DNA of 64,000 nt, taken from positions 1 through 64,000 of the forward strand of contig JAWLHY010000012.1 of NCBI GenBank assembly GCA_041690135.1, in the 5' to 3' direction. The translations under genes and the position numbers were made by a program. Source of the stretch: Armatimonadota bacterium (GTDB lineage: Bacteria > Armatimonadota > SYMT01). The notes beneath the pieces are model-generated. The model saw only the letters and a list, made by a program, of their open reading frames with translations. It had not been told where the DNA came from and made no database searches. Below, piece by piece: positions 55,971 to 62,735 of this stretch. Numbering within the stretch: the first letter of the stretch is position 1; the number at the start of each line of letters is the position of its first letter.

Positions 55971-56180
55971 TCGCCCCTCCAGGGCTCTTCTATGCGAACC
56001 TCGGGTCCGGGGGTTCACACCCCCGGCTATGCTCCTCTCGCCCCTCCGGGGCTTTCTATCAGCTCATACCGAGAACCATAGTACCTTGCCAAATCCGCGC
56101 CCCGTTTCGCTACCCCATCTCTCCTTATCCTTATCTTCACCCCTCTTTATCCTTATCCCGGCTCCTCTTTATCCTTATCC
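55971..56180. repeat. REP-like unit and CCTTAT hexamer tract between sigma and anti-sigma
   Basis: Direct repeats TCGCCCCTCCRGGGCT (55971, 56038) around hairpin 56007-56026; ccttat repeats at 56123-56180. Confidence 0.65.
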
Positions 56181-57081: not shown

Positions 57082-58401
57082 ATGATCGAACTGGGACAGG
57101 GAAAGATCCGGACCTGTGAAGGGGTCAGCCGCCGACGCCTGCTCACCGTCGGTGGCCTGGGCATGATGGGCCTTACCCTGGCCGACGCTTTGCGTGCTCG
57201 GTCCGCGCACGCCTCCCCGTCCACCGAAGGCGATCGCACCCGCTCCTGCATCTTCGTGTGGCTGGACGGCGGTCCCAGCCAGTACGAGACCTTCGACCCC
57301 AAGCCCGAGGCGGCCGTGGAGGTGCGCGGTCCCTACGGCGCCATCGAGACGAACGTCCCCGGGATCCGGATCAGCGAGCTGCTGCCGACCCTGGCGCGGC
57401 AGATGGACAAGTACACCATCATCCGGACCTTCACCCACGGGCTGGACCGCCATTCCCCCGTTCACGTAATGACCGGCTCCCCGAACGACTCGACGGCTTT
57501 TGGCGCCGTGGTGACCGCCATGAAGGAGCGGCGGAGCGTGCTGCCGCCCTACGTCCGCCTGGGTTCGCAGATTAGCGGGGTCGGCGGGGGAAAGCTGGGC
57601 GCCGCCTTCGATCCGGTCCAGGTGGAGAACCCGGGCGCCGGGAAGCTTGTCATCCCGGACTATGAGCGCCCCTCCGCCGTGGACGAGCTCCGGTTCAGTC
57701 GTCGCCGCGGTCTCCTCCAGGCGGTGGATCAGTTCCGGCGGGAAACGGATGCCGATCCGGCGTTGCGGACGAAAGACGCATCCTACCAGCAGGCGATGGG
57801 GCTCCTGACCTCCACCGAGGTGCGCGAAGCATTCGACCTCTCCCGCGAGCCGGCGAAGCTGCGCGCCCGGTACGGCGCCAACAAGTTCGGGCAGAGCTGC
57901 CTCCTCGCGCGCCGCCTGGTGGAGGCCGGGACCCGGTTCGTGGAGATCAAGTGGTTCGGCGACGTCGATTCCTCCGCCTACGACTCGTGGGACGTCCACG
58001 GGGCGGACCTCCCTGGTCTTTCCCGGCTGGAGCACCAGCTCTGCCCGCGCCTCGACCTGGCTTTCGCCGCCCTCCTCCAGGACCTACACGACCGCGGCCT
58101 GCTGGAGTCGACCCTGGTGGTGGCGCTCGGCGAATTCGGGCGCACCCCCAAGATCAACCCGCTGGGGGGCCGCGACCACTGGCCCGCCGCTCAATCCGTC
58201 TTCGTGGCCGGCGCCGGCACCCCCGCCGGGACCGTCATCGGCAGCACCGACGCGGACGGCGCCTACCCCGCCAGCCGCCCCGTGCCCCTGAACGACTTCA
58301 TCGTCACCTTCTACCGCCTCCTCGACCTCAACGCCAACCTGGACGACCGCCTGCGCCCCTTCATCCCCTCCGGCAACCTCGTCGACGAACTCCTGGGATA
58401 A
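57082..58401 (+). CDS. DUF1501 domain protein
   Basis: SRR, WLDGGPSQYETFDPKP, LLARRLVEAG, GEFGRTPKIN..GGRDHW. Confidence 0.93.
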   Translation: MIELGQGKIRTCEGVSRRRLLTVGGLGMMGLTLADALRARSAHASPSTEGDRTRSCIFVWLDGGPSQYETFDPKPEAAVEVRGPYGAIETNVPGIRISELLPTLARQMDKYTIIRTFTHGLDRHSPVHVMTGSPNDSTAFGAVVTAMKERRSVLPPYVRLGSQISGVGGGKLGAAFDPVQVENPGAGKLVIPDYERPSAVDELRFSRRRGLLQAVDQFRRETDADPALRTKDASYQQAMGLLTSTEVREAFDLSREPAKLRARYGANKFGQSCLLARRLVEAGTRFVEIKWFGDVDSSAYDSWDVHGADLPGLSRLEHQLCPRLDLAFAALLQDLHDRGLLESTLVVALGEFGRTPKINPLGGRDHWPAAQSVFVAGAGTPAGTVIGSTDADGAYPASRPVPLNDFIVTFYRLLDLNANLDDRLRPFIPSGNLVDELLG

Positions 58402-59948: not shown

Positions 59949-61070
59949 ATGTCGAGACGGAAAGGGCCGGGGATCTTCCCCGTGCTTCTGATACTGGCGA
60001 CCGGGTTCCTTTCGGCCCGGACTGCCGGGGCCGCCGCGCCGGATCCGCTGGCGCGCGGGAAGGCGATCTTCCAGAGCCAGTGCGCGCGTTGTCACGGGGA
60101 CGACGGCGCCGACGTCACCAGCTATCCGAACATCAAGAGCCTGGTGGACATCACCCAGCGGATGTCTGCCCAGGACGTGATCGAAAAATCGAAGGGCTTC
60201 GCCTCGTTGCCGATCGAGGGACAGGACGCGGCTGCCCTTTATGCCTTCCTGGGCACCCTGCGTACCGGGGGCTACGCGAACCCGAACCTGCTGGTCGAGA
60301 CGAGCTGGGTTGCCGCTCATCTTCAGGACCCGGCGGTCCGCGTGGTGGACATGCGCTCCGACACGGCCTATGCGGCGGGCCACATTCCAGGCGCCATTCT
60401 CCTGGCGGAAGGGCCACTCCGCAGCGAGGATGACCGCGAGAGCTACCTTCCCAACCTGGAAGCCTTCGCGTCCCTGATGCGCACCGCCGGCATTGGCAAC
60501 GGCACGCACGTCGTCATCTACGACGACCAGGGAGGCCGCTCGGCTGCCCGCCTCTGGTACGTGCTGAACGCTTACGGCCACGAGCGAGTCAGCCTGGTCA
60601 ACGGCGGCTGGAGCAAGTGGACCGCGGAAAAGCGGCCGGTTTCAATGGAAGCGGTGGCGCCCACGCCCGTGAAGTTCCAACCGCGCCTCACACCGACCTT
60701 GAGCTGCCCATCGGCTCGCGTGCTGGCCCGGAAGCCGGGGGTGGTGTTTCTCGATACCCGCTCCGCCGCCGAATACACAGGAGAACGCCCCTCGGGTGGC
60801 GGCCAGGGACACATCCCCGGCGCCGTGAACGTGGAGTGGAAAGAGAACGTAACCGGGCCGCACCAGGTGTTCAAGACGGGACCGGAGCTGAAGAAGCTGT
60901 ACGCCAGCAGGGGGCTGACGCCGGATAAGGAGATCGTCCCCTACTGAGCGACCGGCGGGCGTGCGGCGCACGCCCTCTTTACGCTGAAGCTCCTCGGGTA
61001 CCCGAAGGTCCGCGTCTACTACGGCTCCTTTTCCGACTACACCCGCCGCAAGGCCCCGGTGGAAAAATAG
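59949..61070 (+). CDS. Exported cytochrome c plus two-domain rhodanese/sulfurtransferase; probable selenoprotein (UGA at 60945-60947)
   Basis: Signal peptide, CARCH, two GHIPGA motifs; reads through UGA as EIVPY-U-ATGGRAAHALFTLKLLGYPKVRVYYGSFSDY to TAG at 61070. Confidence 0.85.
60957..60975 (+). promoter_or_regulatory. Candidate bacterial SECIS hairpin
   Basis: GGGCGTGC-GGC-GCACGCCC; G-starting loop 17 nt after the UGA. Confidence 0.7.
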
Positions 61071-61260
61071 GAGCGCGGTCGTCCTGCCCGCCAGTCGATG
61101 GGGTTATCCGCGAATTGCGCGAATGAAGCGAAGGGGAAGAACAGTTGATAGGCAGCCCCCAGGTAGTCGGTAGGGTTCGGCTGTGCACCTCGTAGGATCA
61201 TCGGGCCTTCTCGGCCGGGATCATGTTTCAGTTCCAGGAGTGCATCCCGGCAGGTATGCC

Positions 61261-61432
61261 GTGGGGCGGGCGTCCCGCCCGTCAGAGTTCGATCACGATC
61301 ACCCAGGGATTCTGCGAGCCGCGGAGAGTGGGGCGGGCATCTTGCCCGCCTCGGCTATCGGTTAGCAAAGAGTGGCGCGGGCGTCTCGCCCGCCCGAGGT
61401 CGATCACGATTCAGATCACGATCACGATCACG
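61261..61432. repeat. Cluster of REP-like palindromes and GATCAC hexamers
   Basis: GTGG-GCGGGC..CCCGCC at 61261, 61328 and 61372; gatcac runs at 61291 and 61402-61432. Confidence 0.7.
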
Positions 61433-61532
61433 AAAAGGATTCTACGTACACAAAACGGGCATCCGTCCCACCCATCCTTATCCTAATCGTAATCCTCGCC
61501 CCAATCGGCCGTAGGCCCCTTCATCCTTCGCC

Positions 61533-62718
<1,186 letters not shown>

Positions 62719-62735
<17 letters not shown>

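Follow-up and report, generated by a model that had tools for sequence, protein, structure and literature searches.

Does the in-frame TGA at positions 60945-60947 of the 64,000-nucleotide stretch of Armatimonadota DNA analysed here (the window, whose own numbering is used unless a contig is named) terminate a gene, or is it read as selenocysteine (Sec), and what might selenocysteine do in a protein that also appears to carry a heme? The complete gene occupies 59949-61070 on the plus strand and is an open reading frame (ORF) of 373 codons with one UGA read through as residue 333, from the ATG at 59949-59951 to the TAG at 61068-61070. From its sequence the product is, with high confidence, a genuine exported fusion of a heme c domain to a rhodanese with real Sec at the catalytic position. 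The explanation favoured here as a whole, this Sec-containing heme-rhodanese fusion with a redox-coupled role proposed for it, is given a probability of roughly 0.75.

The TGA is followed by 40 more codons in the same frame (ATGGRAAHALFTLKLLGYPKVRVYYGSFSDYTRRKAPVEK). A first-pass annotation of this DNA had taken these codons for a rhodanese C-terminus, and the frame does run on to the TAG, giving a read-through product that ends in APVEK, the C-terminus conserved in the family both in the protein alignment and in the DNA of the fused loci. The same annotation had placed the TGA on the catalytic Cys, and the codon aligns with that residue in the homologues as well as in 1UAR, the tandem rhodanese of Thermus thermophilus, where the loop C-R-I-A-E-R stands opposite U-A-T-G-G-R. 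The UGA read as Sec (60945-60947, plus strand, residue 333) is assigned to the catalytic Cys column on both alignments.

The codon in this column was compared across loci fetched from genome contigs (80) and metagenome contigs (80). The scan for the active-site motif covered the plus strand of loci L022-L197 (176 loci), minus-strand loci of the genome search being left out, and returned 95 motif rows, some of which are the same genome twice, e.g. L027 and L042. The catalytic codon was TGC in 67 rows, TGT in 6 and TGA in 22, that is 73 Cys codons and 22 TGA, and the pattern xxGxR[AS]...LLGY...Y.GS was kept after the TGA in 22 of 22 TGA rows. Three of these 22 are fused to a cytochrome: the gene of the window, L038 from an Armatimonadota metagenome-assembled genome and L118 from a metagenome contig. 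The other 19 match the rhodanese part only and are labelled Dehalococcoidia/Chloroflexota, SAR202 or Thermodesulfobacteriota, or lie on unlabelled metagenome contigs (L066, L076, L090, L093, L095, L098, L101, L102, L107-L109, L113, L114, L116, L117, L131, L137, L140 and L142). In the three fused TGA loci read-through extends over 40-41 codons to ...PVEK and a TAG, as in the Cys homologues. Downstream of the TGA, L038 and L118 differ at 5, 3 and 14 first, second and third codon positions, respectively, with 6 of 37 residues changed, a third-position bias. Coding downstream of the UGA is conserved, and the close relatives are not uniformly Cys.

Gene callers nevertheless end the protein at the TGA, as in P0002 (332 amino acids) and 17 other fused predictions. 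Such truncation at the catalytic column concerns 18 of the 36 fused rows, own gene included, and databases carry these proteins under generic names ('rhodanese-like domain-containing protein', 'thiosulfate/3-mercaptopyruvate sulfurtransferase'), often cut at the Sec. Were the callers right, the TGA would be a true stop and the product a truncated or decaying rhodanese, or a cytochrome c with a rhodanese fragment that lacks the catalytic loop. This is very improbable, as the 40 codons past the TGA keep both frame and sequence, vary mainly at third positions and encode the normal family C-terminus, the TGA pattern recurs in several phyla, the genome holds the full Sec machinery, and a hairpin next to the TGA covaries only in TGA forms.

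That hairpin, GGGCGUGC-GGC-GCACGCCC, lies at 60957-60975 (plus strand) and corresponds to the core of a bacterial selenocysteine insertion sequence (SECIS), with an 8-bp stem, the apical loop GGC and an extended helix over 60947-60985. It begins 9 nt past the UGA and its loop, which has G first, lies 17 nt past the UGA, so that the hairpin described earlier for this site (8 bp, a loop starting with G, 17 nt downstream) was exact. The segment 60945-60985 folds with a minimum free energy (MFE) of -21.9 kcal/mol (z = -2.26, 3 of 200 shuffles being equally good), and for a longer stretch of 71 nt z is only -1.06. According to a review (PMC13188914), a bacterial SECIS has a loop of 3-9 nt, an upper stem of 4-16 bp, a G within the first two nucleotides of the loop, a UGA-to-loop distance of 16-37 nt and an MFE of at most -7.5 kcal/mol. 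The loop of 3 nt (GGC), the stem of 8 bp, the spacing of 17 nt and the -21.9 kcal/mol found here all lie within these published constraints.

When 60 nt starting at the UGA were folded for 18 of the 22 Sec-form loci, a recurrent hairpin in a fixed register appeared, with the consensus CCGUGC-GGC-GCACGG and compensatory changes in several loci, e.g. CCGUUC/GAACGG and CGAGC/GCUCG, whereas 16 Cys-form loci fold differently. The CCGUGC-GGC-GCACGG hairpin was also found in most of the 19 unfused TGA loci, and the SECIS is conserved across phyla within the rhodanese family. Covariation was tested on the 8-pair helix in 22 Sec-form and 22 Cys-form loci with 500 shuffles. In the Sec forms 74.4% of cells were paired, against 65.2% after shuffling (reached by 0 of 500 shuffles), and the covariation score was 0.208 against 0.079 (0 of 500). 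The corresponding values for the Cys forms were 52.8% against 51.7% (169 of 500) and 0.113 against 0.102 (147 of 500). The shuffle tests are inflated by relatedness, and the decisive control is how Sec and Cys forms contrast at identical codon positions: the hairpin covaries in the former and not in the latter.

Reading UGA as Sec depends on the host, and the 9.1-Mb genome of 25 contigs, in which the window belongs to contig C12, was searched for the sel genes against curated cut-offs. All four genes that the first-pass annotation had named for checking were present above these cut-offs: selA (C1:1149693-1150778, 481 bits), selD directly downstream of it (C1:1150877-1151803, 370 bits), the tRNA-Sec gene selC (C1:1152265-1152359, 67 bits) and selB (C8:51343-53220, plus strand, 384 bits). 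SelD is itself Sec-containing: its frame holds a single TGA, which falls in the motif KCGGUASK. selA, selD and tRNA-Sec are clustered at C1:1149693-1152359 and selB stands apart on C8, where a gene with a sulfite-oxidase-family molybdopterin domain (C8:50559-50981, minus strand) adjoins it in divergent orientation; another molybdopterin gene of this family is found at C1:1142382-1142903, some 7 kb upstream of the selA cluster. selA was found in 7 of 7 searched genomes of the family, and Cys and Sec forms therefore coexist in Sec-using relatives. An alternative genetic code was considered and rejected, since 27 of the 55 frames in the window with 300 codons or more terminate at TGA.

The rhodanese part is of a well-known type. 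Pfam on the read-through protein matched Cytochrom_C over residues 35-82 with E 6.6e-7 and Rhodanese in two stretches with E 6.2e-41, and residues 108-365 match 1UAR at E 6.4e-44, with 38% identity in the Foldseek alignment and target-normalised template modelling (TM) scores of 0.80-0.90 to solved tandem thiosulfate sulfurtransferases. The non-catalytic N-terminal rhodanese domain was placed at 60300-60629 (plus strand; residues 118-227) from its best Pfam stretch and the 1UAR alignment, in which Asp192 takes the position equivalent to the catalytic residue. The catalytic C-terminal domain, with the loop U333-A-T-G-G-R-A, extends over 60711-61049 (plus strand; residues ~255-367), with limits taken from the 1UAR alignment and the secondary structure of an AlphaFold 2 (AF2) model. 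Features of the tandem-rhodanese class are present in that there are two domains and the catalytic residue sits in the C-terminal six-residue loop, whose class pattern is C-x-x-G-x-[RT] and which reads U-A-T-G-G-R here. The protein scored 134 bits with the NCBIfam equivalog for 3-mercaptopyruvate sulfurtransferase, whose cut-off is 250, and is therefore no SseA equivalog; no NCBIfam model reaches its cut-off for it. The solved tandem rhodaneses compared here (1UAR, RhdA of Azotobacter, 1E0C, and CysA/SseA of Mycobacterium, 3HWI/3AAX/3HZU) are probably cytoplasmic. They share the inactive N-terminal domain, the catalytic C-terminal domain and C/U-x-x-G-x-R with the present protein, but have Cys instead of Sec, no heme domain and no export signal in their titles.

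Sec-containing rhodaneses do exist, as had been noted beforehand. In the accessible parts of two papers, a Sec 'rhodanese-related sulfurtransferase' (COG2897, UxxG) is a listed selenoprotein family since the 2005 Sargasso Sea study (PMC1088965), and forms 2 and 4 of a 'Rhodanese-like domain-containing protein' appear in a table of the 2026 review (PMC13188914). The Sec-rhodanese part is therefore not new. The listed proteins agree with the one described here in the tandem rhodanese, the UGA at the catalytic Cys, UxxG (here U-A-T-G) and a SECIS directly after, but they are described as rhodanese-domain proteins only, with no mention of a signal peptide or a cytochrome c in those parts of the papers. 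A full-text literature search, with selenoproteome supplements outside it, found no description of a cytochrome c-rhodanese fusion, in agreement with the earlier statement that no described protein of this architecture was known. What appears to be new here is the cytochrome c fusion, the Sec rhodanese being already known.

The distribution of the fusion was followed in a protein alignment of 120 rows, the own protein and 119 homologue matches, of which 36 have CxxCH. The 35 CxxCH homologues besides the own protein comprise 17 with Cys, 17 that stop just short of the catalytic column, at the preceding residue, and 1 partial row, and the 84 rows without CxxCH comprise 77 with Cys and 7 that end at the catalytic column. 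The family with one cytochrome c and two rhodanese domains occurs in Armatimonadota as well as in other bacteria of soil and freshwater, and about half of its fused members appear to be Sec forms, the other half being Cys forms. A search of 301 genomes of the phylum at E <=1e-60 gave matches in 13 genomes at 16 places, with one internal TGA in 2 of the 16 (own gene and G021) and none in 14. On a quick maximum-likelihood tree (IQ-TREE, partial row P0095 dropped) the own protein groups with P0003 (Shimodaira-Hasegawa-like approximate likelihood ratio test, SH-aLRT, 99), next to P0004, a Cys form, and outside the main Sec clade, which has a support of 99, consists of 17 Sec rows and 2 Cys rows and includes 'nocyt' rows that may have lost their N-termini by truncation. 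On this tree 8 changes of the Sec label are required, at least 3 of them forced by the starred branches, and Cys and Sec have therefore been exchanged repeatedly.

The N-terminal third of the chain sets the protein apart from the known Sec rhodaneses. A probable Sec-type signal peptide occupies 59949-60032 (plus strand; residues 1-28), read by eye with no predictor. The N-terminus MSRRKGPG-IFPVLLILATGFL-SARTAGA/AAP would provide the charged n-region RRK, a hydrophobic core of 13 residues and the cleavage motif AGA/A (the slash marks the putative cleavage site), which agrees with the signal peptide claimed in the first-pass annotation, and hydrophobic N-termini are present in all homologues of the protein alignment. 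The AF2 model of the whole chain has a predicted local distance difference test (pLDDT) of 92.4, falling below 50 across residues 1-3 and 10-19 in the signal-peptide region. Its predicted TM score (pTM) is 0.86, and the model thereby suggests that the whole chain forms one compact body; the Foldseek matches of the whole chain in the PDB cover the rhodanese part only.

A monoheme class-I-like cytochrome c domain (Pfam PF00034) follows at 60039-60272 (plus strand; residues ~31-108), with the heme c attachment motif C45-A-R-C-H49 at 60081-60095 (plus strand). This CARCH motif had been recognised before, and family conservation bears it out: in 48 sequences, drawn from the fused proteins, from a more distant family of fusions and from two small cytochromes that stand alone, CxRCH is invariant in 48/48, as are all of G37, C45, R47, C48, H49, G50, G53 and Y59, and L65, R71, S81, F84, L97 and L101 are nearly so. 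Three Cytochrom_C_asm genes for heme lyase of the Ccm type are found on contig C20. The lack of a usual distal Met, first remarked on for this single sequence, holds at the family level, as there is no conserved Met or His column after CxxCH in the 48 domains, and no conserved Cys outside CxxCH either. Met72 is variable, with L, Y, F or R at that position in other homologues. Sequence comparison thus makes it most likely that the heme has no canonical sixth ligand.

Structural and sequence comparison of the domain gave distant relationships. An AF2 model of the domain alone has a pLDDT of 90.8, and a Foldseek search with it found nothing at E <=0.001; the PDB matches were all class I cytochromes c, among them c552, c6, ActE, SoxD and TsdA, but weak, with a best E of 0.029 and query-normalised TM scores of 0.5-0.64. 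With phmmer against PDB sequences the N-terminal half, including Y59-P60, aligns with CcoP domains at E 1.4e-5. CcoP shares the N-terminal helix, CxxCH and then [YF]-P-[NS]-[LI], but the match spans the N-terminal half only, and the C-terminal half here has no conserved Met. In a further, non-significant phmmer stretch KGFASLP is aligned with MSFVGLP of cytochrome cy, with the variable residue 82 at the Met, which we take to be the heme ligand of that cytochrome. Two candidate residues were considered and set aside. Y59 was rejected as a Tyr heme ligand since [YF]-P is a motif shared with CcoP domains, which makes the invariance of Y59-P60 structural, and C253, although nearly invariant, is equally conserved in unfused rhodaneses and so is not a fusion-specific heme ligand. 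A search of a representative library with residues 31-110 returned mostly multiheme proteins that match the helix and CxxCH only, together with further fusions and a distant cytochrome c-rhodanese-like family without a catalytic Cys (P0184, P0200, P0202, P0204, P0256, P0263, P0179 and P0213), neither of whose rhodanese-like domains has Cys or Sec at the catalytic position. P0143 combines the cytochrome c domain with Big_14, and stand-alone versions of the domain occur in P0260 (124 amino acids) and P0268 (82 amino acids).

What such a protein does can be approached from its parts. Rhodaneses are usually viewed as redox-neutral sulfur carriers, and in the literature found, as far as its accessible text goes, no function is assigned to the Sec rhodaneses. 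Rhodanese chemistry predicts an Se-S adduct on U333, and the fusion to an export-dependent heme c that has no Met ligand points to electron transfer as the way in which this adduct is made or resolved. In the mechanism proposed by analogy, Sec333 would attack a sulfane-sulfur or chalcogen donor in the periplasm, such as thiosulfate, polysulfide or possibly selenite, and this would yield an Se-S or Se-Se adduct on Sec333, as rhodaneses do with Cys. The adjacent heme c without the canonical Met ligand would then supply or remove the electrons that resolve the adduct, and the protein would be a redox-coupled sulfurtransferase, e.g. a small reductase or oxidase of thiosulfate, polysulfide or selenite, and not a simple transferase. 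This mechanism is put forward tentatively, at odds well short of even. A more far-reaching version, in which the sixth position of the heme is used for chemistry and Sec333 or its Se-S persulfide swings onto or beside the iron, is unlikely; the protein would in that case be a minimal periplasmic oxidoreductase for thiosulfate, polysulfide or selenite with one heme and one Sec, a much smaller and independent reinvention, on a rhodanese scaffold, of a site of the MccSep type, widespread in soil Armatimonadota.

Several systems offer partial analogies. TsdA and SoxAX are periplasmic class-I-type cytochromes c with two hemes and His/Cys heme ligation that handle thiosulfate via a cysteine persulfide or thiosulfonate. 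TsdA has only a weak fold match to the cytochrome domain here (Foldseek rank 13, E 0.16), and homology to TsdA or SoxA was not supported beyond generic matches without significance (phmmer E 0.08; Foldseek E 0.16). Unlike the present protein, TsdA and SoxAX have no rhodanese domain, and their reactive Cys is a heme ligand and not a residue of a rhodanese loop. Closer in its components is MccSep, which PMC13510729 presents as a five-heme c-type enzyme that reduces polysulfide and selenite and for which a Sec next to a His/Cys heme is essential. Its gene (ExtKL, GSU2937-2936, in Geobacter sulfurreducens) clusters with that of the rhodanese-like ExtH, according to PMC5877670. In MccSep and ExtH together heme c, Sec and a rhodanese are all involved, as they are here in one chain, and the active heme of MccSep, as described in the same text (PMC13510729), also lacks the usual ligand set. 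By that description MccSep is a tetramer with five hemes, Sec on an Ig-like domain and a His/Cys active heme, whereas the protein here has one heme, Sec in the rhodanese loop and no Cys ligand identified.

The Ext connection raises the question of whether the protein is specific for selenium, as a periplasmic selenite or tellurite reductase or a selenium-delivery protein, rather than a sulfur enzyme. There is a weak NCBIfam match to ExtH of the selenite/tellurite reduction operon, but at 44 bits it is far under the cut-off of 200. MccSep also reduces selenite (PMC13510729, accessible text), a selenium-substituted rhodanese formed from selenite and glutathione is the subject of a paper cited within the available part of PMC5877670, and an oxyanion transporter of the ChrA type is encoded downstream in the window; ChrA is, however, absent as a neighbour in the other loci examined. 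Cys occupies the catalytic column in half of the fused family, and the sequence offers nothing that separates Se from S substrates, which leaves a selenium-specific enzyme a rather improbable explanation.

The most serious alternative accepts the Sec fusion as real and places the heme outside the chemistry of Sec333. The protein would then be an ordinary periplasmic sulfurtransferase for sulfane-sulfur trafficking or detoxification of cyanide or sulfite, with the cytochrome c only as a docking, electron-relay or sensing module. In its rhodanese part the protein is a typical tandem thiosulfate sulfurtransferase, the same Sec and SECIS often occur in relatives that lack the fusion (19 of the 22 TGA rows), the neighbourhood holds no redox partner, and both the distant cytochrome c-rhodanese-like proteins without any catalytic Cys and the stand-alone copies of the cytochrome domain (P0260 and P0268) fit such an arrangement. 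On the other hand, a covalent fusion kept over many lineages, and present in a second distant family, points to functional coupling, AF2 predicts a single compact body (pTM 0.86), and pure electron carriers do not usually lose their Met ligand. A passive heme is a plausible explanation, though one held at below even chances and about as likely as the redox-coupled mechanism.

Some observations weigh against the preferred explanation, a Sec heme-rhodanese fusion with a redox-coupled role. DNA confirms the TGA in only 3 fused forms (own; P0018, which is L038; P0021, which is L118), the other 15 fused Sec forms being assigned from predicted proteins that end at the column. Cys and Sec forms are exchanged freely, as happens in many ordinary thiol enzymes. 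A role of the heme domain independent of the rhodanese active site is possible because the distant fused family has no catalytic Cys. Pfam on the ORFs flanking the gene in the window, L038, L039, L040, L118 and L026 revealed no conserved neighbour, and no SoxB above the cut-off was found in the genome. Finally, a search of sequencing runs for the sequence of the window found none that carries it; only three metagenome runs were returned, with 4-5% of words each, and no RNA run was listed.

The last result bears on whether the TGA might be a TGC or TGT misread in sequencing or assembly, in favour of which it also counts that TGA is one base from the Cys codons. In contigs of relatives (~90% alike) over 60801-61071 there was no difference at 60945-47 among the rows listed. 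Independent assemblies show TGA at this column (L038, L118 and the 19 unfused loci), and in TGA forms only the synonymous codons downstream are tuned to the SECIS hairpin, which makes an error extremely unlikely.

The gene stands alone, with a gap of 85 nt after a GT4 glycosyltransferase gene and ~460 nt before the ChrA-type transporter gene. The flanks seen in the different loci are GT4/ChrA, TPR/MutS, hemerythrin/beta-lactamase and MiaA/flavin adenine dinucleotide (FAD) oxidoreductase, and since the gene stands alone, its neighbours differ per locus and there is no SoxB above cut-off, its function is proposed from its parts only. Four sulfite-oxidase-family molybdenum domains in the genome are not discriminating. 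The chromate transporter gene of the ChrA type downstream (61533-62735, plus strand, E 4.5e-87) and a DUF1501 protein gene upstream (57082-58401, plus strand, E 2.1e-89) were not neighbours in the other family loci examined. A scan for sigma-70-type promoters found none, and two terminator-like matches inside the gene are within chance expectation. The intergenic stretch 61071-61532 contains hexamer arrays (CGATCA x5.5 and ATCCTA x3.8), especially at 61401-61433 and 61474-61496, and contigs of unrelated metagenome runs, up to 22 deep in X2, stack over 61256-61300, pointing to a small repeated element. The sole Rfam match in the window is to the Acido-Lenti-1 small RNA at 56007-56053 (plus strand), with 38.4 bits against a gathering threshold of 37.

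An exported rhodanese hard-wired to a heme c without a canonical sixth ligand leads to the hypothesis that a (seleno)persulfide intermediate is resolved by electron transfer. If this is true, the protein would join the multiheme MccSep as a small, tractable model for catalysis with heme, selenium and sulfur, and it would point to an unrecognised way in which soil bacteria without a Sox system turn over thiosulfate, polysulfide or selenite. If the heme is passive, the protein would still be a well-supported new selenoprotein architecture.

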